Source of the DNA: an uncultured Porphyromonadaceae bacterium
GTDB taxonomy: Bacteria; Bacteroidota; Bacteroidia; Bacteroidales; Muribaculaceae
Length of the DNA stretch: 64,000 nucleotides
Direction: 5' to 3'
NCBI GenBank assembly: GCA_947174995.1
Contig: CAMWLC010000004.1
Span: forward strand, 6,428 to 70,427
This document shows, piece by piece, positions 3,109-47,443 of this stretch. The stretch's first letter is position 1. The number at the start of each line of letters is the position of its first letter. The notes beneath the pieces are model-generated. The model worked only from the letters and a program-made list of their open reading frames with translations, was not told where the DNA came from and made no database searches. The translations under genes were made by a program, and so were the position numbers.

Positions 3109-3303
3109 TAAGTAAGTATTCAAATTTAAACGATATAATCAAAAGTAAGTGCTCACTTGATCTTTTATACAATCTGCGGCTTCTTTTTTGCCGCTTTCAG
3201 CTTGTCGCTCAGTCGCATAGCTCGCTATGCTCCCTCTCTCCGCACAGAAATCGTCTAAAAAACAAGCTCGCATATTGTATAAATTAAATTTGAACACTTA
3301 CTT
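3109..3303. mobile_element. TIR element, copy A (195 bp, inverted relative to copies B and C)
   Basis: Starts TAAGTAAGTATTCAAATTTAAA and ends TTAAATTTGAACACTTACTTA. It is nearly identical to the reverse complement of 33570-33766, while the flanking DNA is unrelated. Confidence 0.85.
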
Positions 3304-3462
3304 ATGGAATTAGATTTGTATACTCCCTTAGACAGTGAATTGGGACGTGAGTTTAGGTGATAAATCTCAAGAAATGTTAACGGAGTGGGGAATATATACG
3401 GGAAATCGAGGAAAATTTTAAAAAAACAGCTTGAAAAATTTGGATGTGATGAAAATAATGCT

Positions 3463-3616: not shown

Positions 3617-3679
3617 TATCTGTACGGACTTGACTTGCCAAGTCCGCCATCCCGTTTTGTCTCTGTCACCTCATGGACT

Positions 3680-24323: not shown

Positions 24324-24631
24324 AGTAGAGGAGACTTCCAGCCTCCTCAAATCAGCAGCGAAATTTAGAAAGGAGGGTGGAAGCCTCCTCTACTTTATGT
24401 TGCGAAATTGTTAAACTTTGGGGGTTGGTTCAACCGATTTTGTGGGAGGTACGTTACACTGATACAAAAGCAAGAAATCGTTTCATGATGTTAGGTTAGT
24501 TAGTTAGAAAAGTATTATGGAAAACACTGACAGAGGGCCCGCTGCGAAGCGGGCCCTTTGCCGTCACAGTAGAGGAGGCTTCCAGCCTCCTTGCATCCGG
24601 CAGTGCAAGTAGAGGAGGCTTCCAGCCTCCT
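24324..24631. repeat. Cluster of four copies of the 24-nt hairpin motif AGTAGAGGAGGCTTCCAGCCTCCT
   Basis: Copies lie at 24324-24347 (one substitution), 24371-24394 (inverted, one substitution), 24568-24591 and 24608-24631 (identical direct copies). Each contains an AGGAGGC/GCCTCCT stem. Confidence 0.85.
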
Positions 24632-24632
24632 T

Positions 24633-24830
24633 ATAAGTAGTTCTCAAAAATTAATGAATACATAAAACTTAGATGTTTTTGAGGCGATTCGGGTGCGGAA
24701 TGAGGGAGAATACGTATGTATTCGACTGAATGACAAATCCGAAGCGGCCAAAAACAGCAAGTTTTATGATTCAAGATTTTTCTTGAAATACTTTGAAATA
24801 TATGTCGTTTAATTTTTGAGAACTACTTAT
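24633..24830. mobile_element. TIR element, diverged copy D (198 bp)
   Basis: ATAAGTAGTTCTCAAAAATTAA ... TTAATTTTTGAGAACTACTTAT is a perfect 22-bp inverted repeat. The interior aligns with copies A-C, and substitutions in the stems are paired (see findings). Confidence 0.8.
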
Positions 24831-27520: not shown

Positions 27521-27576
27521 AATTCATAATTTTCCTTTGAATTTGAACACTTACTAAATATTCAATACCGAACCAC

Positions 27577-32817: not shown

Positions 32818-33519
32818 GTGATGAAAATAGGAATACTCGCGGCCATGCAGAAGGAGCTGGCTCTTCTTCTGCCGCTGCTTGAAGGGAGGAAAGAGGAGAG
32901 TGTGGACGGACTTGCGCTCCACACCGGACGCATCGGAGGTCATGAAGTGGCCATGATGCAGTGTGGCATCGGCAAAGTCAACTCCGCGCTCAACACATAC
33001 AGGCTGATCCATGCCTTCTCACCCGAGCTGATCATAAATTCCGGAGTAGCGGGAGGGGCGGACAAATCCATGAAAATAGGTACGGTGCTCGTGGCCGAAT
33101 ATGCCGCTTATCACGACGTGTGGTGCGGCCCGGGCACTGAGACGGGTGCCGCAGACGGTATGTCGGTATTTCTCCCCGCTGCCGAAGATGTCGTGGCTAC
33201 CGCGCGCAGAGTTCTGCCGGAGGATGGTGTTAGATATGGTCTGATTTGCAGCGGAGACCGTTTTATCTCCACGGCCGCCGAAGTGCGTGCCATAAAGAAG
33301 AGTTTTCCCTCGGCGTTGGCCTGCGACATGGAATCGGCTTCGATAGCCCAGGTGTCGCTGGGTTGCGGAGTGCCGTTCAGTATAGTCAGAGTTGTGAGCG
33401 ACACTCCCGGAGAGGGAGAGAATATCGAGCAGTACAAGGACTTCTGGACCGAGGCTCCGCGCAAGACCTTCGAGGTGGTCAAGAGAATAATTGACGCACT
33501 TCCGGTGGAGCCGAAATAA
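32818..33519 (+). CDS. mtnN: 5'-methylthioadenosine/S-adenosylhomocysteine nucleosidase
   Basis: 233 aa with KIGILAAMQKEL, QCGIGKVNSA, INSGVAGG and DMESASIAQV motifs. Confidence 0.85.
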   Translation: MMKIGILAAMQKELALLLPLLEGRKEESVDGLALHTGRIGGHEVAMMQCGIGKVNSALNTYRLIHAFSPELIINSGVAGGADKSMKIGTVLVAEYAAYHDVWCGPGTETGAADGMSVFLPAAEDVVATARRVLPEDGVRYGLICSGDRFISTAAEVRAIKKSFPSALACDMESASIAQVSLGCGVPFSIVRVVSDTPGEGENIEQYKDFWTEAPRKTFEVVKRIIDALPVEPK

Positions 33520-33569
33520 CCGGGCCCCGCGCTGTCCTTTCCTATTTGATGGAGTTTAAGTCCTTTTCT

Positions 33570-33766
33570 TAAGTAAGTGTTCAAATTTAATTTATACAAT
33601 AGGCGAGCCTGTTTTTTTAGACGATTTCTGTGCGGAGAGAGGGAGCATAGCGAGCTATGCGACTGAGCGACAAGCTGAAAGCGGCAAAAAAGAAGCCGCA
33701 GATTGTATAAAAGATCAAGTGAGCACTTACTTTTGATTATATCGTTTAAATTTGAACACTTACTTA
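33570..33766. mobile_element. TIR element, copy B (197 bp)
   Basis: TAAGTAAGTGTTCAAATTTAA ... TTTAAATTTGAACACTTACTTA. The last A of the element is the A of the ATG of the following small ORF. Confidence 0.85.
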
Positions 33767-33927
33767 TGGATACCAATCTTATTTTACAATATTCCGCCGT
33801 GGGAGGCTCATTTCTTCTCGCCGGTGTCCTTATGGTAATGAGGAGATGCCGCCGGCCCCGCAAAAGGGGCGGAGGCTGCTGCGGGTGCGCTCTGAAGGAA
33901 TCCTGCGCTTCGCGTAAGAGGGAGTGA
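33766..33927 (+). CDS. FeoB-associated Cys-rich membrane protein-like small protein (53 aa)
   Basis: MDTNLILQYSAVGGSFLLAGVLMVMRRCRRPRKRGGGCCGCALKESC is one TM helix followed by a basic stretch and a GCCGC cluster, as in the FeoB-associated Cys-rich family. No feoB gene is present in the window. Confidence 0.55.
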   Translation: MDTNLILQYSAVGGSFLLAGVLMVMRRCRRPRKRGGGCCGCALKESCASRKRE

Positions 33928-33952
33928 GGGGGAGGAGTAAGTGTTGAGGGTT

Positions 33953-33998
33953 AAGTGATATGGGTTAGAGGTTTGTAAACCTCTAACCCATATCACTT
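33953..33998 (+). terminator. Long perfect hairpin after the small Cys-rich ORF
   Basis: AAGTGATATGGGTTAGAGGTTT-GT-AAACCTCTAACCCATATCACTT. The 3' arm abuts or overlaps the start of element copy C. Confidence 0.6.
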
Positions 33999-34193
33999 AT
34001 GTAAGTGTTCAAATTTAATTTATACAATATGCGAGTTTATTTTTTAGCTGATTTCAGTGCGGAGGAAAGGAGCATAGCGAGCTATGCGACTGAGCGACAA
34101 GCTGAAAGCGGCAAAAAAGAAGCCGCAGATTGTATAAAAGATCAAGTGAGCATTTACTTTTGATTATATCGTTTAAATTTGAACACTTACTTA
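33998..34193. mobile_element. TIR element, copy C (196 bp, same orientation as B)
   Basis: TATGTAAGTGTTCAAATTTAA ... TTTAAATTTGAACACTTACTTA. Relative to B, the interior carries several substitutions and a 1-nt indel. Confidence 0.85.
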
Positions 34194-34214
34194 ATATTGC
34201 TTTTGGAAGTTGAA

Positions 34215-35291
34215 TTATCGGATGACTACCTTGGTGGCTTTACAGTCGGCGACACGGATGAAGATACCGGCGGAGGGGTTGTTGACTTTCACACCCTGGA
34301 GGGAGTAGTAAGCCACGGGAGTCTCGGCGGCACCTACTGACGAGATGCCGGTGGAGTTGCTCTGCGCGAGATATGTGAGGATGTTTCCGGTGAGCTTCTC
34401 GAGATTGGAGTGGAAAGCATTGTTCTCTGTCCGGGGAGCCCATTCGCAGGCGGCGAGACCGTTGGCCACTATTCTGCCTTTGATCTCGGTGGTAGGGTTG
34501 AAGTCTACCAGACCGGCCACACAGTAGTCCTGCACGTGGCCCCAGGTGCCGATGACGGTGCAGTCAAACTGGCTCTCGAACTTCTCGAGGGTGTTCTTTC
34601 CCTCGGTGGTGTAGGAGTATGCGTTGAGGTCCCACATGCAGTTGTGGTCTTCACGATGGATGGCGGTGCCATCGGCAGTGCCCTCCATGGGGAAGCTCTC
34701 GTGGGGGTATCCCGTCTTTTCAGGAGCGATAGTCTCCAGACCTGCGTATGCGGGATGGTTGCGGCGGTCATATACCTGCGTCAGGTCGGGTTCGGCGGCA
34801 TTGAACTGCATGGAGCCGAAAAGTGCGTTGACTGTCCAGATGTCAGTGCCCCGGCCTCCGTCGCCGTCACCGAAAATGCCGGGAGCATAGTTCTCGGGAA
34901 GGCGGCCGAGAGCCGATACGAGCTGGGTGGCGTGTTTGGAGAGATAGAGGGAGCCGCCATCCTTGATATAGTTGGTGAGGGCCTCCTTTACGGCCGCGCC
35001 GGCCATTTCCTCGGGAAGACGGTCGGCTCCGTGACCGATGCCGATACGGTCGATATGGATCCAGAGCGCGTCCAGATCGGCGGCATTGATTTTCTCAATG
35101 GAGGAAAGGGTGATGAGCGCGCCCTCGGGAAACGCGCTTGTGAACCATGCTGCCGCGGCGGCCTCCTGCGCGTTGGCGGCGGACATATCGTCATGGCCTA
35201 CGAGCATACCCACCTTTTCGGCGGAAGCGTTCATCGGGAGAGAAGCCATCATAGCGGTGGCGGCAAGTGTGAGGGAAGTAAAGATTTTCAT
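34215..35291 (-). CDS. DUF4960-like secreted protein with T9SS CTD
   Basis: 358 aa with a signal peptide. The blocks DALWIHIDRIG, GGSLYLSKHATQ, REDHNCMW, TWGH and ANGLAA are shared with two modules of the GH32-like protein. The CTD is YYSLQGVKVNNPSAGIFIRVADCKATKVVIR. Confidence 0.6.
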   Translation of the reverse strand: MKIFTSLTLAATAMMASLPMNASAEKVGMLVGHDDMSAANAQEAAAAAWFTSAFPEGALITLSSIEKINAADLDALWIHIDRIGIGHGADRLPEEMAGAAVKEALTNYIKDGGSLYLSKHATQLVSALGRLPENYAPGIFGDGDGGRGTDIWTVNALFGSMQFNAAEPDLTQVYDRRNHPAYAGLETIAPEKTGYPHESFPMEGTADGTAIHREDHNCMWDLNAYSYTTEGKNTLEKFESQFDCTVIGTWGHVQDYCVAGLVDFNPTTEIKGRIVANGLAACEWAPRTENNAFHSNLEKLTGNILTYLAQSNSTGISSVGAAETPVAYYSLQGVKVNNPSAGIFIRVADCKATKVVIR

Positions 35292-35476
35292 GTCAGTGAA
35301 GTTAAAAAATTTGAAAAGTGTTGCGGAAAAGATTCCGGCGGCAAAATTAGAGTCGGATTATCGCAACGCCTTTCATTTCACTGACATATACTTGACAAAT
35401 CATTATTTTGAAAGGAAATGTCAGAATATAGCAAATACATGCCCCCAACTCATGAAATTTCAGAGCCTCCGGGGCC

Positions 35477-38254
35477 TCAGTCTTTCCGGATTGAATTGCG
35501 CAGTTCCGAGGGTGAGGTGCCATAGCAGTCGCGGAAGCACTTGGAGAGATATGCCGGGGAGGAGAAGCCCGATTCGTAGGCGATTTCGCTGATGCTGCGG
35601 TCAGTGGTGAGGAGCAGTTCGCGGGCCATCTTGAGCCGGAGATTGCGGAGTATCTCCGAAGCCGTGAGTCCCGTGAGGGCCTTCAGTTTCCTTGACATCT
35701 GCGCCGGACCGAGACCGAGGCGCGAGGCGATCTCCTCCAGGCTCGCGGATGAATCCGATATCCTTGCCTTTGCCTCCTTGAGAAAAGCTCTGTAAAACTC
35801 GCTCTCCAGGCTTCCGGCATCGTTGATGTCTATATCCTTTCCGGCGATGCGGTCACCGGAGGGTTGTCTCACCGACTCTTCGTCATATAACTCCCGGATA
35901 CGACGCCTGTTTTCGAGCAGATTCCGACATCGTGCCGTGAGCAGCTCGTGGCTGAAGGGCTTGGTGATATATCCGTCGGCACCGGAATCGTAACTCTCCA
36001 CGCGTTGTTCCTCAAGCTGGCAGGCTGTCAGCATAAGCACGGGAATGTGGGAGGTGGAGACCTCCTTTTTCAGGGCCGCGCAACACTCCAGACCATCCAT
36101 GCGGGGCATCATCAGGTCGCATATTATAAGGTCGGGCACATATCTTGTGGCCAACCCGAGAGCTTTGCGTCCATCAGAGGCCTTTATCACATTATATTCA
36201 TTGCCGAGAATATTGCCCACAAGACTGAGAATGTCGGGATTATCGTCAATTGCGAGCACAATGGGCTTGTCGGCGTCGAAAGTGGCGCCACCGCTTTCGG
36301 GGGGTGTAAAAATCACATCCACATCATCATTGTCCGGTTTCACCTCCGGAGTCTGTTCCTCATCCGAAACATGAATCACGGGGATCGTGACCGTAAACCG
36401 CGAGCCCTTGCCGGGAGTACTTTCCACGGAAATTCCGCCGCCGTGCATCTCTGCGAAGGCCCGCGCGAGGGCGAGTCCGATGCCCGAACCCTTGGGATTC
36501 ACGCGGTCCACCTGATAGAACCGCTCGAAAATCTTCTCCAGTTCGCCGGCCGCTATGCCGCTGCCGGTATCCTCTATGGAGAAAATGAAATTTTCCGGAG
36601 TCTGCCTGCACTCCAGCGTGATACATCCATGGCTCGGAGTGAACTTGAAGGCATTTGACATCAGATTGAAGAATATTCTTTCGATTTTCTCCACATCTAC
36701 AGCCATCCTGAAGTCCGAGGGTGTGCCGAAATCAGCTGAAAAACCTATATCACGTTTTCCCGCAACATTCAGGAATGAATCGGCCCACTCGCGGAAGAGA
36801 GACTGCATGTTTACCTCGGTGAGATGTAACTCGGATCTGCCGTTCTCATATTTCCTGAAATCCAGAATCTGGTCTATCATACGGCGCAGGATTCTGACAT
36901 TCCTGACGGCTATCTTCATCAGCCCGCGGTCGGTCTGGCTCAGGTTGCGGCTTTCGGCCAGACGCTCCACAGGTTCCGCAATCAGCGTGAGAGGAGTGCG
37001 CAGGTCGTGTGACACGTTGGTGAAAAACACGAGCTTCGACTTCGTGGCCTCGTCAAGAGCCTTGTAGAGGGCATCCTGCTTGTCGCGTTCCTCCGAGAGT
37101 TGCGCGTTTTTGGCGGTCAGAATGTTCTGATACTTGGTGCGTTGGCGAATGACTCTGACAGCCATGAAAATCGCTGCTCCGAGGAGCAGGGCTATTGCCA
37201 CGATGGAGTAGAGGAAGTAAGACTGTGCCCTGTGGCGCGACCAGATGTCGTCATACTTGGACTGGAGCAGGCGTATCTTGTTGGTCTCATCGTCAAGCAG
37301 ACGGTATTGCCTCAGCATTATATCGGCATTGTTGGAATCCACCGGGGGGAGGGCAGGACTGATCTGCACCTTGTCAAACGGACGATTCTGAAGGATGTCA
37401 AGGGCCGTTTTCACGAGACGATGGCCGTCTGTAGGATATATGAATGTTGCGTCTATAACGGAATCTGCCACTGCCTTGATGCCCAGGGCCGGAGCGGCAT
37501 CCGTGCCGAGCACCATCACATCCTCGCGTCCTGCTTTTTTCAGAGCCTTGGCCGCCCCGATGGCCATTAGGTCGTTATGAGCATATATGAGGCGGATATC
37601 CGGGTGTTTGCGTATAAGCGAATCGGCCACTCTCCCGGCGGGCACTTCCTTCCATCGTGCCGACACGGATGCCACATTGTGAAGTGCGGGAAAATCGGCA
37701 AGACGCGACACGAAGCCCTTGTGACGCAGAGCGGCCGGCGTAGAGCCCTCAAGACCTGTGATTTCAGCTATTGTCCCTCCTCCGTGAAGATGAGAGGCTG
37801 CATACTCGGCAGCCGTGCGTCCGATACCCTCGTTGTCAAACTCTATGAAAGCCGTGAAATCATCTCCCGTCACTCCTCTGTCGAATACGATCACCGGGAT
37901 ACCCTTGCGGTAGGCCTTGCTGAGCACCGGAGTCAGGGCCTCGGCCTGGTTTGGCGCGGCTATTATGACGTCCACGCCCTCTTCTATGAAATGTTCGATG
38001 TCGGCTATCTGACGGGCGTTGTCGTCATCGGCTGTGCGTATCTCCACATCAACCTCTGGATGAAACAGCACCTCGCGGTAGATCTCATCGTTCATCTTGG
38101 TGCGCCAGATGTCGTCGCTGCACTGCGACACCCCGATGCGCCAGGTGGCCTCTTTCTTTTCGCTGCATCCCCCGGATAATATAATGACCGACATCAGGAG
38201 CAAACCGGAAAAGAGATATGTGAGAGTCCCGAAGCCGAATGATTGCCGTTGCAT
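35477..38254 (-). CDS. Hybrid two-component system sensor/regulator (periplasmic sugar-binding domain, HisKA/HATPase, receiver, AraC HTH)
   Basis: 925 aa. The N-terminal type-I periplasmic-binding fold (WRIGVSQCSDDIWR..., IPVIVFDRG) is followed by a TM segment. Next come the H-box (FFTNVSHDLRTPLT), the G-boxes and the receiver (ILAIDDNPD...DLMMPRMDG). The C-terminus is an AraC HTH. The architecture matches the B. thetaiotaomicron fructose sensor BT1754. Confidence 0.8.
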   Translation of the reverse strand: MQRQSFGFGTLTYLFSGLLLMSVIILSGGCSEKKEATWRIGVSQCSDDIWRTKMNDEIYREVLFHPEVDVEIRTADDDNARQIADIEHFIEEGVDVIIAAPNQAEALTPVLSKAYRKGIPVIVFDRGVTGDDFTAFIEFDNEGIGRTAAEYAASHLHGGGTIAEITGLEGSTPAALRHKGFVSRLADFPALHNVASVSARWKEVPAGRVADSLIRKHPDIRLIYAHNDLMAIGAAKALKKAGREDVMVLGTDAAPALGIKAVADSVIDATFIYPTDGHRLVKTALDILQNRPFDKVQISPALPPVDSNNADIMLRQYRLLDDETNKIRLLQSKYDDIWSRHRAQSYFLYSIVAIALLLGAAIFMAVRVIRQRTKYQNILTAKNAQLSEERDKQDALYKALDEATKSKLVFFTNVSHDLRTPLTLIAEPVERLAESRNLSQTDRGLMKIAVRNVRILRRMIDQILDFRKYENGRSELHLTEVNMQSLFREWADSFLNVAGKRDIGFSADFGTPSDFRMAVDVEKIERIFFNLMSNAFKFTPSHGCITLECRQTPENFIFSIEDTGSGIAAGELEKIFERFYQVDRVNPKGSGIGLALARAFAEMHGGGISVESTPGKGSRFTVTIPVIHVSDEEQTPEVKPDNDDVDVIFTPPESGGATFDADKPIVLAIDDNPDILSLVGNILGNEYNVIKASDGRKALGLATRYVPDLIICDLMMPRMDGLECCAALKKEVSTSHIPVLMLTACQLEEQRVESYDSGADGYITKPFSHELLTARCRNLLENRRRIRELYDEESVRQPSGDRIAGKDIDINDAGSLESEFYRAFLKEAKARISDSSASLEEIASRLGLGPAQMSRKLKALTGLTASEILRNLRLKMARELLLTTDRSISEIAYESGFSSPAYLSKCFRDCYGTSPSELRNSIRKD

Positions 38255-38434
38255 TGGTGTAATTATTATGTGGTCATTAATTTTTCAGAGCTACTTAAGA
38301 ACTACTTATTCATTTCGGTGCAAAAATAAACCATACTCTTTTGAAATACAAATAATTGCTTTCAATATGCCGACAACTCCACAAATGTGATACAAAATGC
38401 ACGATTTTTGATACTCCCCTCCAGGCCGCCTCTC

Positions 38435-38442
38435 TACTTTTG
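38435..38442 (+). promoter_or_regulatory. -7 box (TACTTTTG) upstream of the GH32-like gene
   Basis: Matches TAnnTTTG, 92 nt upstream of the ATG at 38534. Its position argues against the 38387 start of the track ORF. Confidence 0.4.
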
Positions 38443-38533
38443 CATCGCCGTCCTCCCCGGCATAGTCATTCAACGGGCTTTCCCTCCGGAATGGAGACGA
38501 CGGACAGAAACGAAAACCAACAACCAAAAAATA

Positions 38534-41500
38534 ATGCTTTTTTCTATGACCGACAACATGACAAAACTCTGTATGGCCGCCCTGCTTACGGCAGCCGGAC
38601 ATACGGCGGCGGTCCATGCGGATCGTGTGGCATGGTTTCCCATGGATGTGCAGTCAGGGCTTAACGAGAGAGTCTCGGGAGGCCACTGGGACATCCAGGG
38701 CAACTTCGCGCCTATGCAGATTTCGCTTGACGCATCCCGTCCGGCCTGGCGCACGGACGGATATACATCGAAAGCCGTGGCTCATCTGGGCAATCTGGTG
38801 GATGGCTCCGAGATGAGCGCCACCGTCTGGGTGGCTCCCGACACATATCCCATCATCGTGCATGAGCATCCTACGGAGGAGAAGAGCGAAATTGTCAGCT
38901 GCCTGACCGACAACTCCGGATTCGGATTCTTCCTCGGACGCACCGGACATTATTCCTTCGTGACATACGTCGGAGGCGTGCGTGTGGAGGTGGAGTCAGA
39001 CCGGCTGCTTCCCCTTTGGGAGTGGACCTGCCTCTCCGGCGTGGTGTCAGACGGCAAGGTGCGCCTCTATGCAGGAAAGACCCTCGTCGGCGAGGCCGAC
39101 GCTCCCGGCAATGTGCGGGTAGCCGACAGCGAACTCTTCATCGCACGCCGCAATGACGGCGGCGACTGGCCCGGCGTGAATGTGCGTACATTCAACGGCG
39201 GCATCGGCGAAATCGCAGTTTACAGCAATGCTATCGGCGTCGACGAGATGGAGGACACCATGCCCGCGCTCCTCAATCTTCCCGCCGACCATTATAAAGG
39301 CAACCGCATGCGTGCCGGTTTTCACGGTCAGCCCGAGATGAACTGGACCAACGAGACCCACGGACTCATATACAGCGGTGGGCTCTATCACCTCTTCTTC
39401 CAGAAGACCGGCTCAGCGCCCGTGATGACACATCAACACTGGGGCCACATCGTGTCGGAAGACCTCATGCACTGGCGCGACACCCGACCCGCTCTCGCTC
39501 CCGGAGAGAGCTATGACATCAAGGGATGCTGGAGCGGCTGCGTGGCCATCGATCGGGCCCTCAACGGAGGCGCTCCCACCATTTTCTACACCGGTGTGGA
39601 CTACGCGCAGCCCTATCTCGCCATGGCCACCGCCACGGACGCTACACTCGCCAATTGGGAGAAATCGGCATCCAATCCCATCGTCACTCTCAAAGATGGT
39701 GCCGAGTCTCACTTCCGCGACTGCTTCTATTTCAAGGGAGACGACGGATGCTGCTATATGATCACCGGCACTTCCAAAGATGGACGCGCCGCCACTATGC
39801 TCCACCGTCTCGATGGCGACTCATGGACCGACCTCGGTTACAGCTGGGTATCGGAGGACGCAGGTGTAGATGGGAACTTTGCGGAAATGCCCAACCTCGT
39901 CAAACTCGGCGACAAGTGGATGATGACCACCACAGCACTCGGTTCCGATCAGGGTGTCGTATGCCGCTATCGCCTGGGTTCGCTTGACGGCGGACGTTTC
40001 GTGCCGGACGAAGCATACCGTCTGCCCCGCAAGGTGGACATCCTCGCGGAGCGCGGATTCGGACTCATGTCTCCCTCTCCCTCTGTGGATGCTTCGGGCA
40101 ATGTGATCGCCATGGGTATTGTGGCCGACAAGCTCCCCACCCATTATAACCTTTCCAACGGATTCGCGCATCTTTACAGCCTCCCGCGCGTGTGGACGCT
40201 CAGCGACGGCGAACTCGCCCAGGCTCCGCATCCCATGACGGAGACTCTGCGTGCCGAAGATGCCTTCGGCCAGTATCATGCAGCCGACGTAGCTCTCAAC
40301 GGCACTCTCAGCCTGGAGAACGTGCGTGGACGCGCCGCCGAAATCGACGCCCGCTTCACGGTAGGCACTTCCACCTTCGGCATCAACTTCTTCAAGAACG
40401 CCAAGGGTCGCCAGGCCACGCTTTCCTATAATCCCGCCACCCATGAACTCGCCGTTGACTTCGGCGGCATCAAGCGCTGGGGCCAGGATGAGGGAAATCC
40501 CAACCGTTTCTCCGCCATCATTCCCGCTGACCGCGCGCCGCGCGAGGGTGAGGAATTCCGCCTCCATCTTTTCCTTGACCGCTCCATCCTCGACATCTTT
40601 GCCGGAGACCGCTATGCAGCTTCCGTGAGAGTGTTCTGCGAGGATGATGAAGCCGACAACATCGAGCTTTTCGCCGACGGCCTCACCACTGTGGCGAGTG
40701 TTGATGCATATCTCATGGATGGTGGTGACCACACCGCAGAGCCTGTCGCTCCCAAGGAGTTCCAACTCCCGGCCAACAACGGCAAGGTGGCCTTCCTCAA
40801 GAGCAGCCTCGGCGTGAGTCAGCAGGAACAGGCCGCGCTTGATTTCTTCCGGCGCACCAATCCCAAAGGCACGGTTTTTGAAACTTCCGACCTCTCCGGC
40901 CTGAACACCAAGAAGATCGACTGCCTCTGGATCCACATCGACCGCATGGGTCTTGAACATGGTTGGGAGCATCTCCCTGCGGAGTTCGTGGCTCCCGAGG
41001 TTGTGGAGGCCGTGCAGAACTATCTCGAAGCCGGAGGCAACATCTACCTCACCTCACACGCCACGCAGTATGCCGTGGCAATCGGCCGACTCAACTCCCA
41101 CTACGCACCCAATGAGATAGCCACCGGCGAAGGTGGCCACGGCACCGACTCCTGGACCGTCAACCCCCGCATCATGCAGAGGTATGACCACTCCTCCCAC
41201 GCTATCTACAATGACCTGGAAGAGTGTGACATCTTTGAATGGAACGAAGGCACCTTCGGCCTTCTCTACGGCGGCGGCGCCAACATACATCGCGAAGACC
41301 ACAACTGCATGTGGCGTCTACGAGACTTCCACTTCAGCTCCGAGGGAGACAACCGCATAGAGCAGTTCGAGAACGCTACCCACTCCCGGGTGATCGGTAC
41401 ATGGGGCCAGGACAACTCCGACGAATTTGCCGGCATCATCGAGTTCTATCCCATGCAGAACGCCGACCATGAATACGGAGGCACCATTATAGCCAACGGT

Positions 41501-42664
41501 CTCGCCGCCTGCCAGTGGTATGTGGAGGGTGAGAACGCCTACGAGCAGAACCTCCAGCTCCTCACCGCCAACACATTCACATATCTCGCCAATCCCAACA
41601 AGGAGGAGCAGCCCGAAAATCCCGGCGGCGGTGAATACGTTGAGCCGGAAACCCCGGAAATCCCCGAATCCACAGGCAATGTGGCAATGTACATCGGTGC
41701 ATCCATGGCCGAGGTGATGAACAACGAGCAGGAATGGGGCGCTGTACAGCTCTTCCAGTCCCTCTATCCCGGAGCCACTGTCATCTATGGTCTCCCCGAG
41801 CTCATCAATGAATCGGAAACTCCCTACGATTGCCTCTGGGTACACGCTGAGCGCGACCACATCGGAGCCGGTTGGCAGAACGTGACCGGACTCAATGACG
41901 AGGCCACAATCAAAGCCCTGAGCGAGTATCTGAGCAACGGCGGAAACCTTTACCTCTCCAAGCATGCAGCCCAGCTCGTTGTGGCCCTCGGCCGCACGGA
42001 TGCAGCTCCGACCGAGTTCGGCAACACCGATCCGAACATCATCCTGGAGCGTCCCGACCATGATGAGTGGCAGGCCAACATCTACGCCAACGGCGAGGAC
42101 TGGTCAGAACACACCATCTTCTATCAGATTCCCTACATAGATGTGGAGCACGGCAAGGTGATCGACCTTCTCGGCAAGGGTGCAAGACACTATGACCGCA
42201 ACTGCATGTGGAAGCTCAACGACTTCGGCGGTCATGACGAGTTCTGTCGCAACCACAACGCCCGCGTGCTCGCCACATGGGGCCACAACGGCGGCCAGGC
42301 TTGGGGGGGCATCATAGAGTTCATGCCCCGCACAGGCACCATGAACCGCGCCATATCCCAGGATCGTGTTGAGGCTCGCAAGGGCACGGTAGTGGCCAAC
42401 GGCCTCGCAGCTTACCAAATAGCTCCTCTCCAGGGGTCCGTGAATCCCTATCAGGACAATATCAACAAGCTCACCTCCAATATCCTCGCCTATCTCTCGC
42501 CCGTGGCTGAGGAGGATCTGTCAACCGGTGTCGCCGGTGTTTCGACAGCCGAGGCTCCCGTGCGCTGGTTCACTCTCCAGGGAGTCGAGGTGGTTCGCCC
42601 GAGCGCAGCCGGCATCTACATCCGCGTCTGCGGCAAGGAGAGCCACAAGGTAATAGTGAAGTAA
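38534..42664 (+). CDS. Multidomain secreted GH32-like fructanase: LamG-like domain + GH32-like catalytic domain + 2 x DUF4960-like modules + T9SS CTD
   Basis: The start is taken at the first Met before the signal peptide (MTKLCMAALLTAAGHTAAVHA); 38546 or 38558 are also possible. GH32 blocks are LYHLFFQ, HWGHIVSEDLMHWRD, GCWSGCVAI, FRDC and AEMPNL. Two DUF4960-like modules lie at about 40785-41590 and 41680-42510. The CTD is RWFTLQGVEVVRPSAAGIYIRVCGKESHKVIVK. Confidence 0.75.
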   Translation: MLFSMTDNMTKLCMAALLTAAGHTAAVHADRVAWFPMDVQSGLNERVSGGHWDIQGNFAPMQISLDASRPAWRTDGYTSKAVAHLGNLVDGSEMSATVWVAPDTYPIIVHEHPTEEKSEIVSCLTDNSGFGFFLGRTGHYSFVTYVGGVRVEVESDRLLPLWEWTCLSGVVSDGKVRLYAGKTLVGEADAPGNVRVADSELFIARRNDGGDWPGVNVRTFNGGIGEIAVYSNAIGVDEMEDTMPALLNLPADHYKGNRMRAGFHGQPEMNWTNETHGLIYSGGLYHLFFQKTGSAPVMTHQHWGHIVSEDLMHWRDTRPALAPGESYDIKGCWSGCVAIDRALNGGAPTIFYTGVDYAQPYLAMATATDATLANWEKSASNPIVTLKDGAESHFRDCFYFKGDDGCCYMITGTSKDGRAATMLHRLDGDSWTDLGYSWVSEDAGVDGNFAEMPNLVKLGDKWMMTTTALGSDQGVVCRYRLGSLDGGRFVPDEAYRLPRKVDILAERGFGLMSPSPSVDASGNVIAMGIVADKLPTHYNLSNGFAHLYSLPRVWTLSDGELAQAPHPMTETLRAEDAFGQYHAADVALNGTLSLENVRGRAAEIDARFTVGTSTFGINFFKNAKGRQATLSYNPATHELAVDFGGIKRWGQDEGNPNRFSAIIPADRAPREGEEFRLHLFLDRSILDIFAGDRYAASVRVFCEDDEADNIELFADGLTTVASVDAYLMDGGDHTAEPVAPKEFQLPANNGKVAFLKSSLGVSQQEQAALDFFRRTNPKGTVFETSDLSGLNTKKIDCLWIHIDRMGLEHGWEHLPAEFVAPEVVEAVQNYLEAGGNIYLTSHATQYAVAIGRLNSHYAPNEIATGEGGHGTDSWTVNPRIMQRYDHSSHAIYNDLEECDIFEWNEGTFGLLYGGGANIHREDHNCMWRLRDFHFSSEGDNRIEQFENATHSRVIGTWGQDNSDEFAGIIEFYPMQNADHEYGGTIIANGLAACQWYVEGENAYEQNLQLLTANTFTYLANPNKEEQPENPGGGEYVEPETPEIPESTGNVAMYIGASMAEVMNNEQEWGAVQLFQSLYPGATVIYGLPELINESETPYDCLWVHAERDHIGAGWQNVTGLNDEATIKALSEYLSNGGNLYLSKHAAQLVVALGRTDAAPTEFGNTDPNIILERPDHDEWQANIYANGEDWSEHTIFYQIPYIDVEHGKVIDLLGKGARHYDRNCMWKLNDFGGHDEFCRNHNARVLATWGHNGGQAWGGIIEFMPRTGTMNRAISQDRVEARKGTVVANGLAAYQIAPLQGSVNPYQDNINKLTSNILAYLSPVAEEDLSTGVAGVSTAEAPVRWFTLQGVEVVRPSAAGIYIRVCGKESHKVIVK

Positions 42665-42717
42665 CGTCTGAAGTAGAGGAGGCATCCCTGCCTCCTTACT
42701 ACAATCTGTCGTACAGT

Positions 42718-42748
42718 TGAGGAGGCATCTTTGCCTCCTCACTTTTTT
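42718..42748 (+). terminator. Rho-independent terminator after the GH32-like gene
   Basis: TGAGGAGGC-ATCTTT-GCCTCCTCA followed by CTTTTTT. It is preceded by a second hairpin of the same family at 42677-42696. Confidence 0.8.
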
Positions 42749-42823
42749 ATAGACTGCACGCGATGTTTCCGTATTTGATTCTTATAACATCACCATGATA
42801 TTGCATTTCTCCGAACAAATAGT

Positions 42824-42831
42824 TAATTTTG
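42824..42831 (+). promoter_or_regulatory. -7 box (TAATTTTG) upstream of the AAA-ATPase/PD-(D/E)XK gene
   Basis: Matches TAnnTTTG, 21 nt upstream of the ATG at 42852. Confidence 0.4.
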
Positions 42832-42851
42832 TGGATTGACAACGACAGATT

Positions 42852-44432: not shown

Positions 44433-44461
44433 CCCCGGGAGCGCACAGAGTCTCGTTATTG

Positions 44462-44564
44462 GCGCGGAGTTCACTCTCCAGGGTGTCGAGGTAGCTCGTC
44501 CGGGCGCACCGGCATCTACATACGCGTCTGCGGCAAGGAGAGTCACAAGGTAATAGTGAAGTAA
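44462..44564 (+). pseudogene. Remnant of a T9SS C-terminal domain coding end (duplicate of 42562-42664, frameshifted)
   Basis: About 90% identical by eye to the last ~100 nt of the GH32-like gene, including the TAA stop and the following GTCTGAAGT(A/T)GAGGAGG. A 1-nt deletion (CGCAGCCGGC versus CGCACCGGC) breaks the frame, and there is no upstream ORF. Confidence 0.7.
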
Positions 44565-44824
44565 CGTCTGAAGTTGAGGAGGTATCTCGAATTTTTTTGG
44601 TCAAAATAGGATATTATTGGAATAAATGGGGGTAATTGGAACTCTTGTTTACTCGGAATTGATTTCATAATTTTGATGTGGAAATGATAACACCATTATC
44701 AAATGCGAATCACATCTTAAATTATATCAATATGAAACATTTCTGCTTCTGTGCCTAATATGCTGATTATGGATATGCCACCATTTCCGGCAGCGGCAGG
44801 AACTTCAGTCTTTTAATTTCTCCG

Positions 44825-45436
44825 ATGGTCTACGCTGGAGGAAATTACGAGATTTACATTCCCGAGGCTACCTTCCGTAATGCTGCCGAAGAGGCCGATG
44901 CAACGAATTTCAGCAGCGAACTCTATTATCACTATCATAAGAGGCAGCCCAAGGTGATAACCGTGACCGAAAAGATTCCGGCACAAAACGCAGAATTGTA
45001 CGGCTTCGACACCGGAGAGGGTATTACTATCGTGACTGATCCGAGAGGTATGGCAGCCAGGATGGAACTTGAATTAACCTCGTATCCTGTGGAAGACTAT
45101 CAATATGAAGGTGGAATTATACTACTCCGTACCGAAACAACCACCAGGAATGAAGAGGGCGACATCTGCTGGATAAATGATGGTCCCGAAATCGAATTCT
45201 CCAAGGACAGACGATACGAGGTGCGTTTTATTCTCTTTGATGCTGAAGGCACTGCTCTCCGCCAGGGTGCCATTGAATATAATTATCCCGCTGATTCCGT
45301 TGGTATAGATACAATAACCGGATCGGAAAGCGAGAGAAAGGTGTACAATATTCAAGGTATGCGTCTTGGTAACGATATCGATGCTCTTCCCGCAGGACTC
45401 TACATCATTGACGGCAAGAAAGTGGTGAAGAAGTAA
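44825..45436 (+). CDS. T9SS CTD-containing protein, probably a 5'-truncated or decayed gene
   Basis: 203-aa ORF ending in the CTD KVYNIQGMRLGNDIDALPAGLYIIDGKKVVKK, but with no signal peptide. Short broken ORFs (MKHFCFCA*, MLIMDMPPFPAAAGTSVF*) lie just upstream. Confidence 0.45.
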   Translation: MVYAGGNYEIYIPEATFRNAAEEADATNFSSELYYHYHKRQPKVITVTEKIPAQNAELYGFDTGEGITIVTDPRGMAARMELELTSYPVEDYQYEGGIILLRTETTTRNEEGDICWINDGPEIEFSKDRRYEVRFILFDAEGTALRQGAIEYNYPADSVGIDTITGSESERKVYNIQGMRLGNDIDALPAGLYIIDGKKVVKK

Positions 45437-45496
45437 TGTATAGTTGACAGTGTTGAGTGTCCGGTTGACAATGGACGCGATAACACGATAGATGAC

Positions 45497-45622: not shown

Positions 45623-47443
45623 TCAGGAGATCTTTTTGCCGGAGTTGTCCGCGAAGACGGAGAGTGTGATCTGCGAGATCATCTCCTTGAGGCGGGCGAT
45701 GAACTCATCGGCGCTGTATTCCCCGCGCTCTATGGCACGGAGGCGCCCCTCCCAGATGCCGGTGAGCTTGGCGCTCTTGAGCAGTTCCTCGTTGATTATG
45801 CCGATGAGGTCAATGCCGGCTTTGGTAGCGCGGAGCGTCTTTCCCTGACGACCGCATTTTTCGATATATCCCCGCTTGTAAAGCACCTCGATGATGGCGG
45901 AACGTGTGGAGGGGCGCCCCAGGCCGTTGGCCTTCAGGGCCTCGCGCAGATCCTCGTCCTCAACCGTTGAGCCTGCTGTCTCCATCGCCTTGAGCAGAGA
46001 GCCCTCGTCAAAATATTTCGGAGGCTTGGAGGTCTTCTTCACCAGATGCGGTTCGTGAGGGCCTGTTTCTCCGCGTTTGAAAGGGGGGAGTTCAGTCTGT
46101 TCGGACTCCGATTCCTTTTTGTTTTCACGCTCGGGATCTTTGTCGCGGGCATATACGGCTTTCCATCCCTGCGCCATAATCACGCGCCCCGAGGCCTTGA
46201 ACTCCACATCAGCAGGCGTATCTTTGACCGTTCCCTTCACAATGGTCTGGTCATACTCCATATCGGGATAGAACACCGATATGAAACGCCGTGCTATCAG
46301 GTCGAACACCTCGTATTCCGCCCGGCTCAATCCCTGCGGCAGAGGTATACCCGTGGGTATGATGGCATGATGATCGGTGACTTTGGAATTGTCAAACACC
46401 TTTTTCGACTTCCTGAGCTTGCTGCCGCGAAGAGGCTGGAGCAACTCGGAATATTGCGTCAGGGAGTTGAGGATGGGGCCGCACTTGGGGTATATGTCGT
46501 CCGTGAGGTAAGTGGTGTCCACACGCGGGTATGTGGCGAGCTTTTTCTCATACAGGCTCTGGATGGTGCGCAGTGTCTCCTCGGCCCCCATGTTGAGCCG
46601 CTTGTTCGCCTCCACCTGGAGAGCCGTCAGGTCGAAGAGGCGGGGTGGAAACTCGCGCCCTTTCTTGCGGCTCACCTCGGTGACGGTAAACGGCGAGGCC
46701 TTGAGGCGCTCCGGCACGGCTGCTCCCGCCTCCTGAGTCTCGAAAGGATCAAGCTGTGTGGAGAAGGTGACACCTCTATATATGGTGCGCAGCTCGAAAG
46801 TGTCCTTCGGCACGAAATTCTCTATTTCATGCTGACGGTTGACCACCATGGCGAGGGTAGGGGTTTGCACGCGCCCGATGGAGAGGAGATTGCGATCCGT
46901 GCCATATTTGAGGGAGTAGAGACGCGTTGCGTTGATGCCCAATATCCAGTCGCCTATCGCGCGGCAGAGTCCGGCGGTGTAGAGCGACTCAAGTTCCTTG
47001 TGTGGGCGCAGATGCTTGAATCCCTCGCGGATAGCCTCGTCGGTGAGGGAGCTTATCCAGAGGCGTTCCACCGGTTTGTCGCATCCCGCCTTCTGCATCA
47101 CCCAACGCTGGATTACCTCACCCTCCTGTCCGGCATCACCGCAGTTGATGATGCGTTCACACTGCCGTATCAGCCCCTCTATGGTCTCGAACTGCCGCTT
47201 TATACTCGCCTGGGGGATCACCTTGATTCCGAACCGGGGGGGAATCATAGGGAGCGACGAGAGTGACCACCGCTGCCAGGCGGGGGTATAGTCTGCCGGT
47301 TCCTTGAGGGTGCAGAGATGTCCGAAGGTCCATGTCACGCAGTATTCGGGACCCTCGAAATAGCCGTCGCGGCGAATGGTCGCGCCGAGCACGTCGGCGA
47401 TGGTCTTGCCGACGCTCGGCTTCTCGGTGATGCAGAGTATCAA
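45623..47443 (-). CDS. topB: DNA topoisomerase III (type IA, short form)
   Basis: 606 aa with a Toprim N-terminus (ILCITEKPSVGKTIA, GHLCTL, NCGDAGQEGE). The active-site region is RVQTPTLAMV, followed by ...TYLTDD... Confidence 0.8.
   Translation of the reverse strand: MILCITEKPSVGKTIADVLGATIRRDGYFEGPEYCVTWTFGHLCTLKEPADYTPAWQRWSLSSLPMIPPRFGIKVIPQASIKRQFETIEGLIRQCERIINCGDAGQEGEVIQRWVMQKAGCDKPVERLWISSLTDEAIREGFKHLRPHKELESLYTAGLCRAIGDWILGINATRLYSLKYGTDRNLLSIGRVQTPTLAMVVNRQHEIENFVPKDTFELRTIYRGVTFSTQLDPFETQEAGAAVPERLKASPFTVTEVSRKKGREFPPRLFDLTALQVEANKRLNMGAEETLRTIQSLYEKKLATYPRVDTTYLTDDIYPKCGPILNSLTQYSELLQPLRGSKLRKSKKVFDNSKVTDHHAIIPTGIPLPQGLSRAEYEVFDLIARRFISVFYPDMEYDQTIVKGTVKDTPADVEFKASGRVIMAQGWKAVYARDKDPERENKKESESEQTELPPFKRGETGPHEPHLVKKTSKPPKYFDEGSLLKAMETAGSTVEDEDLREALKANGLGRPSTRSAIIEVLYKRGYIEKCGRQGKTLRATKAGIDLIGIINEELLKSAKLTGIWEGRLRAIERGEYSADEFIARLKEMISQITLSVFADNSGKKIS

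Follow-up and report, generated by a model that had tools for sequence, protein, structure and literature searches.

Two direct repeats closely flank a short open reading frame (ORF) in the genome of an uncultured Muribaculaceae bacterium, within the 64,000-nt stretch of DNA analysed here (the window). A preliminary description of this sequence read the arrangement as a composite or captured gene cassette, expressed from the repeat, and the question is whether the repeats brought the ORF to this place or were inserted beside a gene that was already there. The repeats are copy B (33570..33766, + strand; 197 bp including the TA at each end, 33570-71 and 33765-66) and copy C (33998..34193, + strand; 196 bp including the TA at 33998-99 and 34192-93). 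They are 93.4% identical, start 428 nt apart and are separated by 231 nt, a segment that holds a 53-aa ORF and a perfect hairpin. The two same-orientation copies bracketing 231 bp that had been described were therefore borne out, at ~197 bp each and with terminal inverted repeats (TIRs) of 21-31 nt.

The direct repeats are copies of a high-copy MITE family

The window holds further members of the same family. Copy A (3109..3304, - strand), ~30 kb from B and in the opposite orientation, is 98% identical to B; B differs from A at 4 positions and from C at 13. A diverged relative (24630..24830, + strand; TIR TAAGTAGTTCTCAAAAATTAA) has the same architecture; its core shares 72% identity with B, and its apical stem has compensatory changes. 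A solo right-end-like terminus (TTGAATTTGAACACTTACTA; 27533..27556, + strand) is accompanied by a T-rich subterminal remnant. The 20-nt TIR string occurs seven times in the window, against 0 expected from 100 shuffles. Two of these right ends lie a short way before gene starts: a minus-strand lipoprotein-like gene has its ATG (3074) 34 nt downstream of the right end of copy A, and an MFS transporter gene starts (ATG at 27577) 20 nt downstream of the solo remnant.

The family consensus of the element is 186 bp long; in the subfamily of the window genome, which carries a 10-nt insertion (33716-33725), the length is 196-197 bp. Its terminal 21 nt are perfect inverted repeats and its 31-nt arms are 87% complementary, giving TIRs of ~21-31 nt. 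The element is an imperfect palindrome over its whole length and folds into a rod (z = -6.7 for copy B; z ~ -7 on both strands). When the fold of copy B was mapped onto the family alignment, 90.6% of cells paired versus 28-45% when the structure was slid, a comparison that favours the structure being tested. Double changes, the counts of which are not inflated by this mapping, occurred in 112 cells versus 29 in shuffles (0/500 shuffles). Because the rod covaries, the element is under clear structural constraint. RNAalifold run on the raw MAFFT alignment recovered only 10 pairs, and conservation along the element is lowest in the subterminal region.

A metagenome TIR scan, seeded on exact TIR matches, returned at least 120 stretches, and the examined loci contain at least 73 unique full-length copies with 65-100% identity. 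K-mer depth in run X1 was 900-4000 for the element versus 23-31 for its flanks, i.e. 30-130 times flank depth. Metatranscriptome contigs with the family, which reach 192 kb, showed an element-to-flank depth ratio equal to that of DNA, and a search of RNA runs turned up none with the window organism. In gut Muribaculaceae, those of mouse and hamster among them, the family is abundant, and short-read assemblies break at each of its copies.

Insertion duplicates a TA target. In a nested copy (L193:4234-4419), the only strict empty-site case in the examined loci, flank + TA + flank aligns without gaps to intact copies, and TA termini were found in 67/73 full-length copies among the matches listed. 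No transposase was found between TIR pairs 0.6-4 kb apart in ~1.1 Mb of loci, where such pairs enclose host genes only, and these loci yielded no cognate autonomous element with matching TIRs. The only internal ORF (33 aa), open in many copies, was rejected as a gene since its TTG start is GAA, GGA or AGA elsewhere. The element is thus short and bounded by TIRs, duplicates its target site, lacks a transposase of its own and occurs in many dispersed copies; repeats B and C are copies of a high-copy, non-autonomous MITE family. We could not find this family described, as our literature search returned no published account of it. A derivation from IS630/Tc1-mariner elements is only a guess, because its basis is the TA target duplication, which the family shares with that group.

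A predicted small membrane-protein gene is conserved at the locus

The 53-aa ORF (33766-33927, + strand) is the Cys-rich membrane ORF that had been described, with an N-terminal QY motif, one TM helix (hydrophobic stretch AVGGSFLLAGVLMVM), a basic stretch (RRCRRPRKR) and a CCGCxLxxxC motif (CCGCALKESC). An exhaustive phmmer search returned 52 matches, ~47 of them full-length small proteins. The invariant residues Q8, Y9, C38, G40, C41 and C47 are all kept in the window ORF, as is a nearly invariant Leu. Its reading frame is undisrupted by frameshifts or early stops, and its TM helix lacks the Trp that is common in the family. Homologue searching by word index gave no candidates, a failure of sensitivity, because exhaustive phmmer found the family. 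Pfam PF12669 (FeoB_associated) was matched by 47/48 full-length homologues at E <= 0.01 (best 2.5e-10). The window ORF itself scored 20.7 bits (E = 5e-4), under the gathering threshold of 27, and has the N-terminal TM helix and C-terminal Cys-rich motif of that architecture. Since 47 of its 48 homologues match the model, the ORF is, by transitivity, a predicted divergent member of PF12669. The exact 53-aa protein is not on record by exact-sequence look-up, NCBIfam has no model for the family, and gene callers did not annotate the ORF in three same-species assemblies.

Upstream of the ORF, on the same strand, lies mtnN (5'-methylthioadenosine/S-adenosylhomocysteine nucleosidase; 32821..33519, + strand; NCBIfam NF004079, 194 bits; Pfam PNP_UDP_1), 50 nt from the small-ORF ATG in the reconstructed ancestral state. 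The exact MtnN protein (ATG start) is on record in same-species assemblies. On the other side is a DUF4960/levan-binding SGBP gene (34215..35291, - strand; Pfam PF16324), the first gene of a fructan PUL that includes an HTCS (35477-38254) and a GH32 protein (38387-42664). A topoisomerase gene (45626..47443, - strand; Topoisom_bac + Toprim in Pfam) forms the far boundary of this ~11.5-kb PUL segment, and its product is 86% identical by tblastn to the protein of L006, one of the two closest relatives. In these relatives, L006 and L007 (MtnN identity 82% and 79%), the topoisomerase gene directly adjoins the small ORF in convergent orientation, and by synteny the fructan PUL is absent from the equivalent position. 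Their ORF, which is on the mtnN strand and has no element beside it, lies 159 and 63 nt, respectively, past the point where the mtnN match ends; in L007 it starts 18 nt after the mtnN stop codon, and in L006 the start reads cTATGGATaat. Orthologues were present in 37/80 related Muribaculaceae mtnN loci, and the gene upstream of them in relatives is mtnN or a topoisomerase gene. Judged from this conservation, the ORF is a genuine, conserved gene that is ancestral at the locus.

Proteins of the PF12669 family are ~50-80 aa long and prevalent in Bacteroidetes and Firmicutes (PMC8749426). The expectation that they normally accompany feoB holds for the Pfam family generally (PMC8749426) but not in this clade, where mtnN and the topoisomerase gene are the conserved neighbours. 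The preliminary description had noted no feoB in the window, and no FeoB was found among the window ORFs scanned (469-1404 aa). The window ORF therefore resembles the family in its small size, N-terminal TM helix and C-terminal Cys motif, and differs in its sub-threshold score and in not lying beside feoB. In Muribaculaceae the 'FeoB-associated' proteins are thus a conserved gene family that stands on its own, beside genes with no relation to Feo. This bears on whether such peptides are functional, their translation being an open question (PMC8749426).

The small ORF is followed by the perfect hairpin that had been described downstream of it (33952-33974 and 33977-33999, not assigned to a strand), with 23-nt arms that are 100% complementary, a 2-nt loop and an energy of -34.7 kcal/mol. 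It sits between the convergent small ORF and SGBP gene and is most likely a bidirectional terminator or a transcript-end stem. A simple terminator scan (33400-34300) did not call it because it has no T-run, and Rfam at gathering thresholds gave nothing except a tRNA. Sub-threshold Rfam matches of the hairpin to miRNA precursors, from a permissive scan, were taken as noise. No second copy of the hairpin was found in the window or the examined loci. Copy C is inserted at the last TA of the hairpin (33998-99); taking out C and one TA extends the stem to 24 bp, supporting the TA duplication.

Two separate insertions beside a resident gene

We conclude that an old arrangement of mtnN and the small gene was hit separately by two MITE copies. 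The target of copy B is a TA made up of the base before the start codon (T, -1) and the first base of the small-ORF ATG, and the right end of B points toward the ORF. This insertion left the sequence upstream of the ATG as element throughout, with the ATG itself surviving because the TA was duplicated. The preliminary description had the ATG formed by the last base of the TIR. That A (33766) is instead part of the duplicated TA target, not of the TIR proper, and therefore the ATG predates the insertion; the start in L006, which lacks the element, reads TATGGAT. Copy C shares the orientation of B and occupies the space between the hairpin and the SGBP-gene stop codon, 21 nt from that stop, with its right end antisense into the SGBP gene. 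It entered the TA at the foot of the hairpin, beside the convergent stop codon. That B and C are two separate MITE insertions beside a resident small gene is, in our view, very probable, and we hold the whole explanation, double insertion plus the promoter step considered below, with good confidence. B and C are independent, because B is 98% identical to A versus 93% to C. The locus itself is an ordinary one: two repeat insertions on either side of a resident gene.

A cassette, in which both elements and the DNA between them were one mobile unit that brought the small gene, would fit the close spacing of the two direct copies (231 bp) and the TA found on either side of the unit. However, TA flanks every single copy and is therefore uninformative about a unit. 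By its own terms the cassette idea was to fall if relatives carried the ORF at this locus without the elements, and comparison across relatives found this arrangement: in L006 and L007 the gene follows mtnN directly, with no element, and it belongs to the mtnN/topoisomerase neighbourhood in 37/80 loci. The 231-bp middle has no second copy in the window or in ~200 loci, and in X1 it has single-copy depth (23.6 vs 29-31 for the flanks). Further B-ORF-C units, which had been suggested as something to look for, did not appear, the unit occurring once only among the loci examined; two element copies flanking an ordinary host gene are common in the MITE family. Set against a composite transposon, the segment is not foreign, the flanking copies are not closest relatives (B is closer to A than to C) and no transposase is known for the family. 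We regard the cassette as highly improbable. The same orientation and close spacing could point to a local tandem duplication of one element and adjacent DNA, but this is effectively excluded because the flanks of B and C are unrelated, with nothing outside the element duplicated. Moreover, each copy has its own TA pair, and the 13 differences between B and C compare with 4 between B and A.

Another reading accepts the insertions and takes the small ORF to have been silenced by B, leaving a decaying relic in an arrangement without function. The score under the Pfam gathering threshold (20.7 vs 27 bits), the missing TM-helix Trp and the lack of a gene call in three assemblies speak for such decay. 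Against it, none of the six invariant residues has been lost, nor has the nearly invariant Leu, the frame is undisrupted, the ATG is retained, and like junctions occur at genes of the housekeeping type (prmC, HU, fur), which are unlikely to have lost their function. A relic is thus improbable, although less so than a cassette or a tandem duplication, and double insertion beside a gene that has stayed intact is the reading we keep.

The preliminary description had also noted a partial TIR-like string after the ORF, and AGTAAGTGTT (33937-33946, + strand) is indeed an exact 10-nt match to the TIR start (76% over 25 nt). It is probably chance or ancestral sequence, and weak evidence, because L006 carries GAGTAAGGG at the equivalent place after the stop codon. 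Recombination between the direct repeats B and C could lead to loss of the small gene. No single-copy recombination product, and no allele without B, C or the middle, was seen in the three same-species assemblies, which are identical, and contigs of run X1 had no joint lacking B, C or the middle segment. Alleles lacking B or C would be expected to show the empty sites ...CCTTTTCTTATGGATACC... and ...CATATCACTTAATATTGC....

The right end of the element is a candidate promoter donor

Two -7-like boxes had been reported upstream of the ORF, and both are exact matches to TAnnTTTG, the Bacteroidota -7 motif; for its definition and for typical 5'UTR length we followed PMC7366714. The putative box TACTTTTG (33728..33735, + strand) precedes the ATG by 31 nt, is confined to the subfamily of the window genome and would give a leader of ~25 nt. 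The second, TAAATTTG (33747..33754, + strand), is in the right TIR 12 nt before the ATG, is conserved across the whole family and is present at both ends. Its putative leader of ~5-7 nt would belong to a rare Bacteroides class, leaders of <10 nt making up ~3.7% (PMC7366714). Scans of 33400-34300 for sigma-70 promoters and T-run terminators gave nothing, sigma-70 being the wrong promoter model for Bacteroidota, and a complete -33/-7 promoter was not found in the element.

Start-codon junctions like that of copy B recur in the family. Among the matches listed, the ATG of an ORF of >=53 aa was abutted by 8/73 right ends versus 0/73 left ends (Fisher p = 0.006). A terminus-based set, again among the matches listed, gave 10/106 right ends (plus 3 right-end-like variants) versus 2 doubtful cases in 104 left ends. 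Within these listed matches ~10% of right ends are wired to start codons, e.g. those of prmC, HU, fur and a HAD hydrolase. The Pfam domain starts at residues 1-9 in the HU, HAD, PrmC and ThrE_2 junction genes, and Fur, NUDIX, SIS, chorismate-binding and TPR/PD40 proteins are also Pfam-confirmed. In 9/11 junction cases among the matches listed, TAAATTTG occupies positions -19 to -12. With gene starts left out, TG follows the terminal TA equally often at right and left ends (7 vs 7 among the matches listed); because this baseline is equal, real gene starts account for all of the excess at right ends. Since both ends carry the same terminal 21 nt, -7 box included, the asymmetry needs a determinant deeper inside the element. 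Our guess is subterminal GATTTC, or TACTTTTG in the window subfamily.

The junctions at about ten other genes suggest, from their sequences, that one element end may be a portable promoter. The expression from the repeat that had been put forward is thus plausible, with indirect support from the family as a whole. For the locus studied here, the small gene would probably be transcribed from the right end of B, by way of the -7 boxes that precede the ATG by 31 and 12 nt. A transcript starting inside the element would be without the left arm of the rod, and its start codon therefore accessible, whereas in RNA reading through from mtnN the ATG would be hidden at the base of a TIR-TIR stem of >=21 bp. 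We give the expression of the small gene from the right end of copy B about an even chance. The general form of this idea, that the right end of the MITE may be a portable promoter-plus-leader which replaces a gene's whole 5' region while the gene stays expressed, is put forward more tentatively.

The main competitor keeps the double insertion and does without a promoter: read-through from mtnN across B would express the small gene, the rod hairpin perhaps being processed by RNase III as in Correia elements, and ATGs at junctions would reflect a target preference (e.g. TATGG). In L007 the ORF begins 18 nt past the mtnN stop, which implies an operon; several junctions read TATGGA; neither a sigma-70-type nor a complete -33/-7 promoter was found in the element; and RNase III is known to cut Correia TIRs that are transcribed (PMC10969869). 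However, the 7 vs 7 TG baseline shows the right-end excess to be real gene starts. In read-through RNA the 21 nt before the ATG would pair with the left TIR in either orientation, and therefore no orientation bias is predicted, against the 8 vs 0 observed among the matches listed. Read-through with no promoter is thus rather unlikely, although a more serious contender than a relic.

If the right end does act as a promoter donor in a sigma-ABfr system, the MITE family would be the Bacteroidota counterpart of the Neisseria Correia elements. It would then be a widespread transcription-rewiring agent in a dominant, poorly studied gut lineage, and would provide a compact, ready-made promoter-leader part for a clade with few genetic tools.

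Comparison with known elements

Correia elements (CREE/NEMIS) of Neisseria duplicate a TA target and, like the Muribaculaceae MITE, are short (~100-200 bp), non-autonomous, high-copy and intergenic, with TIRs of ~26 nt and no known cognate transposase. The two have no sequence relationship and their hosts differ (Neisseria vs Bacteroidota). Correia promoters are sigma-70 promoters, whereas the putative promoter of the MITE is a sigma-ABfr -7 box, and in the MITE the whole element is a covarying rod, versus the TIRs only in Correia elements. We know of no description of Correia elements in which one particular end is joined exactly to start codons. They often lie immediately upstream of genes and carry outward promoters, and their transcripts fold into hairpins that RNase III cuts at the TIRs (PMC10969869). 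ERIC/IRU sequences of Enterobacteriaceae and Yersinia are likewise MITE-like, intergenic, whole-length imperfect palindromes (ERIC ~127 bp). ERIC are co-transcribed with neighbouring genes and have orientation-dependent effects on mRNA level (PMC10969869). Unlike the MITE, to which they are unrelated in sequence and host, they are described as acting mainly at 3' ends via RNase E and have no reported start-codon junction pattern.

MITEs derived from IS630/Tc1-mariner elements, such as RUP of pneumococcus and Nezha of cyanobacteria, duplicate TA and are short, TIR-bounded, non-autonomous copies with an identifiable IS630-family parent that has matching TIRs. The Muribaculaceae MITE is alike in its TA duplication and short TIR-bounded copies and differs in having no such parent in ~1.1 Mb of loci; many accepted bacterial MITEs, e.g. 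Correia elements, are without a known parent. In Bacteroides, insertion sequences such as IS1186, IS4351 and similar elements provide outward promoters of the Bacteroides type when inserted just upstream of genes such as cfiA, ermF and cepA. These are full-size elements with transposases, usually tens of nucleotides upstream of the gene that receives the promoter, whereas the Muribaculaceae element is a 186-197-bp MITE placed exactly at the ATG.

A conserved small gene at the mtnN locus precedes the elements

Copies B (33570-33766, +) and C (33998-34193, +) of the repeat are direct repeats with 93.4% identity, separated by 231 nt that hold a 53-aa ORF (33766-33927, +) and a perfect hairpin. 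The outer 21 nt of their terminal inverted repeats (TIRs) are perfect, and 31 nt are 87% complementary. All sequence features in the preliminary description were confirmed, namely the repeats, the ORF, the hairpin and two TAnnTTTG boxes (33728 and 33747), and no FeoB was found among the window ORFs scanned. An exact-sequence look-up found no record of the 53-aa protein, no gene is called at its position in three same-species assemblies and a word-index homologue search with it gave no candidates. An exhaustive phmmer search of 1.84 billion representatives returned 52 matches at E <= 1e-3, about 47 of which are proteins of 54-87 aa that align over their full length. Residues Q8, Y9, C38, G40, C41 and C47 are invariant in the homologue alignment, and the window ORF retains all six. 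Pfam PF12669 (FeoB_associated) is matched by 47 of 48 aligned sequences (best 2.5e-10), and the window ORF itself scores 20.7 bits, below the cut-off of 27. Such peptides are described as widespread among Bacteroidetes and Firmicutes, in most cases encoded 3' of feoB, and their translation is unproven (PMC8749426). The small ORF is a real, old gene.

An MtnN scan with one genome per species placed the window in Muribaculaceae near 'Sangeribacter'. By tblastn with the 53-aa ORF, 37 of 80 species have a homologue of it <=4 kb from mtnN. The two closest relatives (loci L006 and L007, with 82% and 79% MtnN identity) carry the small gene just 3' of mtnN on the same strand, with no element at the small-gene locus in either. 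Homology to the small ORF begins 159 nt past the end of the mtnN match in L006 and 63 nt past it in L007, where an in-frame ATG is found 18 nt past the mtnN stop. The start context is ...ctacTATGGATaat... in L006, versus ...ttctTA[element]TATGGATacc... in the window. Judged by this synteny, the small gene was at the locus earlier than the elements. Both L006 and L007 also have a topoisomerase gene convergent with the small gene, and its orthologue in the window lies at 45626-47443 (86% identity). In the distant species L064, L046 and L009, the small gene is directly downstream of the topoisomerase gene on the same strand. Therefore, its conserved company in this clade is mtnN and the topoisomerase gene, not feoB.

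Copy B differs from copy A (3109-3304, orientation opposite to B and C, 98% identical to B), 30 kb away, at 4 positions and from copy C at 13, and the flanks of B and C are unrelated, each with its own TA pair. On this evidence, B and C are separate insertions. The reconstructed pre-insertion order is the mtnN stop, 50 nt, TATG..., the ORF, 24 nt, the hairpin, 20 nt and the stop of the SGBP gene. We therefore reject the earlier proposal that B, the ORF and C form a composite or captured cassette, since the small gene predates the elements and occurs at this locus without them.

The small and topoisomerase genes share a strand in L046, L009 and L064 and are convergent in L006, L007 and the window, which suggests a past local inversion. 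The small ORF of L006 is flanked by inverted copies of a GC-rich palindrome, GGGGCGCGATATATCGCGCCC (2785-2810 and 3137-3165). In the distant species L083 (UBA7141), three element copies or fragments (5649-5813, 6944-7127 and 7570-7617) lie within 2 kb of the homologous small gene (7707-7865, -), with one terminus about 90 nt beyond its stop; this is an independent association of the family with the surroundings of the same gene.

The elements form a high-copy family with TA target sites

The 20-nt TIR string occurs seven times in the window, compared with none in 100 shuffles. The extra match is a solo right-end-like terminus with a T-rich subterminal remnant (27533-27556); a caspase/WG-repeat gene stops 13 nt before it, and 20 nt separate it from the ATG (27577) of an MFS transporter gene. 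A diverged relative with the same architecture is found at about 24630-24830; its TIR differs (TAAGTAGTTCTCAAAAATTAA), the core is the same and the apical stem is compensated. Copy A has its right end 34 nt before the ATG (3074) of an ORF on the minus strand that encodes a lipoprotein-type signal peptide (MKQSVSLLNILTFLMLAFGGASC...), and a tRNA gene (3510-3580) lies about 200 nt from the other end of A.

Metagenome contigs from mouse, hamster, human and other gut samples were scanned by exact match to the 19-nt TIR, which was present in at least 120 stretches. The listed loci yielded 73 unique full-length copies, whose identity to B ranges from 65 to 100% and whose consensus is 186 nt long. 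Copies A, B and C belong to one subfamily, in which the apical stem differs and 10 nt are inserted (33716-33725). This insertion creates an internal near-copy of the TIR terminus, GAGCACTTACTT (33716-33732, also in A and C), together with a small side hairpin and an extra -7-type box, TACTTTTG. In many other subfamilies, this subterminal position is occupied by CACTTACT, possibly a second site of transposase binding. An internal 33-aa ORF was rejected as a gene because its start codon is not conserved.

At each end, 67 of 73 copies terminate in TA. The copy at L193:4234-4419 lies inside another, and its removal, keeping one TA, restored the host consensus AATTTA-TA-CAATATG without gaps, demonstrating TA target-site duplication. 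The TATGGAT start in L006 and the lengthening of the hairpin stem beside copy C on its removal fit such a duplication at the small-gene locus. Elements are inserted into each other at L193:4150-4600 and L105:9378-9563, and two independent copies occupy the same internal host-element TA (TTTA|TA|CAAT), which suggests that the element itself contains a preferred target site. Several loci have clusters of copies and fragments.

Between TIRs spaced 0.6-4 kb apart lay ordinary host genes (C1-like peptidase, DEAD-box helicase, SIMPL, outer-membrane protein and PAP2) and never a transposase. Hence the element is non-autonomous, and its density makes 'element-gene-element' units commonplace. In X1, a DNA run of this organism, element k-mer depth was 900-4000 versus 23-31 for the flanks; TIR(B)-ORF-hairpin-TIR(C) is covered by a 285-nt contig with the depth of a single copy, and the run showed no joint of an empty site. 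Logan short-read contigs of this species break inside the TIRs on either side of the locus, 77 nt past mtnN in L002 and 49 nt past the SGBP gene in L005; the family systematically causes assemblies of Muribaculaceae MAGs to break.

No paper in the literature searched describes a Muribaculaceae MITE. The element has the defining features of a MITE except an identified autonomous parent, and the TA duplication hints at an IS630/Tc1-mariner-type transposase, although the element is not filed there. It appears closest in how it works to the Correia elements of Neisseria and to ERIC, which are likewise high-copy, TIR-bounded, hairpin-forming and intergenic with no known transposase, and which influence neighbouring genes.

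The element folds into a constrained rod

The fold of either strand is a single long rod, with energies of -66 and -55 kcal/mol and z-scores of -6.7 and -7.2, and no Rfam family matched. When the fold was mapped onto a 74-sequence alignment, 90.6% of rod cells were paired, versus 28-45% with slid partner columns. Compensatory double changes occupied 112 cells, versus 29 +/- 4.5 in shuffles (0 of 500 reached this number) and 21-40 when slid. Several pairs have three Watson-Crick types, including TATACAAT/ATTGTATA versus TATGCTTT/AAAGCATA, CCGG/CCGG versus ACGG/CCGT and, in the apical stem, GAATAT/ATATTC versus GCATAG/CTATGC. The covariation clearly points to a hairpin under constraint, with the proviso that copies share descent and a few events may be counted many times.

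Some right ends of the element abut start codons

What is of note is the start-codon junction pattern of the family rather than the B-ORF-C arrangement itself. In 15 of the 73 full-length copies, TG follows the right-end TA and an ATG forms across the junction, as in copy B, where this end faces the small ORF; with eight of these ATGs, ORFs of 53-282 aa begin. The left-end TA is followed by TG in seven copies, and the longest ORF there is 26 aa (8/73 versus 0/73, Fisher p = 0.006). With gene starts removed, TG is equally frequent after TA at both ends (7 right versus 7 left); the excess is therefore due to gene starts and not target preference. Among all termini recognised by subterminal signature, such ORFs abut 10/106 right ends, plus three with right-end-like variant signatures, and 2/104 left ends; the first of these two runs into a neighbouring element, and the second is a 69-aa ORF without a Pfam hit. 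That is, about 10% of right ends and about 0% of left ends abut a true ATG. Pfam matches confirm real genes with their start at the junction ATG: the proteins match HU (residues 1-89, profile 1-89/90), HAD (5-168 on 1-189), PrmC (PrmC_N, 6-76), ThrE_2 (9-147), Fur, NUDIX and SIS, and include a chorismate-binding enzyme and a TPR/PD40 protein with a signal peptide. Junctions occur, for example, at L127:5871(+), L165:5210(-), L111:1042(+), L173:9251(+), L198:8192(+), L153:3115(+), L181:102(-), L159:516(-), L087:131(+) and window 33766.

Insertion at T|ATG would put the native promoter and leader beyond a rod of 186-197 nt. The main rival to a promoter within the element is read-through from mtnN, possibly with RNase III-type processing of the rod, as described for Correia elements (PMC10969869). 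Whichever way the element is oriented, the 21 nt preceding the ATG would be paired with the left TIR in a read-through RNA. Junction insertions, however, survive in one orientation only, which argues that transcripts start in the element and exit through its right end. Among the RNA runs searched, none contained this organism; in mouse metatranscriptome runs, consensus-like copies lay only on unstranded contigs and had the same element-to-flank depth ratio as in DNA. We give transcription from inside the element through its right end roughly an even chance. It is plausible that the small gene is driven from the repeat, a proposal with a testable, family-wide basis.

Both ends share the terminal 21 nt, so the determinant has to lie subterminally. 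One candidate is GATTTC, which is T-rich, lies about 18-19 nt 5' of the TIR box and is absent from the left end. The TIR box, TAAATTTG, is at -19 to -12 in 9 of 11 junction cases; the primary sigma factor of Bacteroidetes has TAnnTTTG as its -7 consensus, and in B. thetaiotaomicron the modal 5' UTR is about 23 nt, with about 3.7% of leaders <10 nt (PMC7366714). A second candidate, in the window subfamily, is TACTTTTG, a perfect box at -38 to -31; starting from it, the AU-rich leader would have a typical length of ~25 nt.

Hairpins and a fructan PUL lie beyond the small gene

The perfect hairpin (33952-33999; 23-nt arms, -34.7 kcal/mol) is single-copy and lies between two convergent genes. Copy C targeted its final TA, and removing C plus one TA extends the stem from 22-23 bp to 24 bp. 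A simple terminator scan did not call the hairpin, which has no T-run; we read it as a transcript-end stem. The partial TIR-like string reported after the ORF, AGTAAGTGTT, is present as a weak 10-nt match; it is probably not element-derived, since L006 carries GAGTAAGGG at the corresponding spot after the small-gene stop.

Between the small ORF and the topoisomerase gene, the window contains about 11.5 kb with a fructan polysaccharide locus (PUL; 34215-45600), including the SGBP/DUF4960 gene, a hybrid two-component sensor and a GH32 protein among others. This segment is missing from L006 and L007 (compared at L006:3033-3203 and L007:4897-4920). Copy C and the perfect hairpin are at its left edge, and its right edge has no element, just a GC-rich hairpin of a common terminator type. 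After genes, a family of short hairpins rich in GC (GAGGAGGC-loop-GCCTCCTC) recurs (42675-42749, 45499-45532 and 24571-24633); these are probably intrinsic terminators and differ from the 23-bp hairpin. A GTAGAGGAGGCTTCCAGCCTCCTT hairpin is found twice (24571-24594 and 24610-24633) ahead of the diverged element relative at 24630. Two adjacent direct repeats (42568-42686 and 44469-44586; 40 nt at 88% and 78 nt at 95%) span the 3' ends of two neighbouring PUL genes and DNA beyond. These two genes share a C-terminal tail, ...GIYIRVCGKESHKVIVK, which may be a sorting or anchoring domain or reflect a recent partial duplication.
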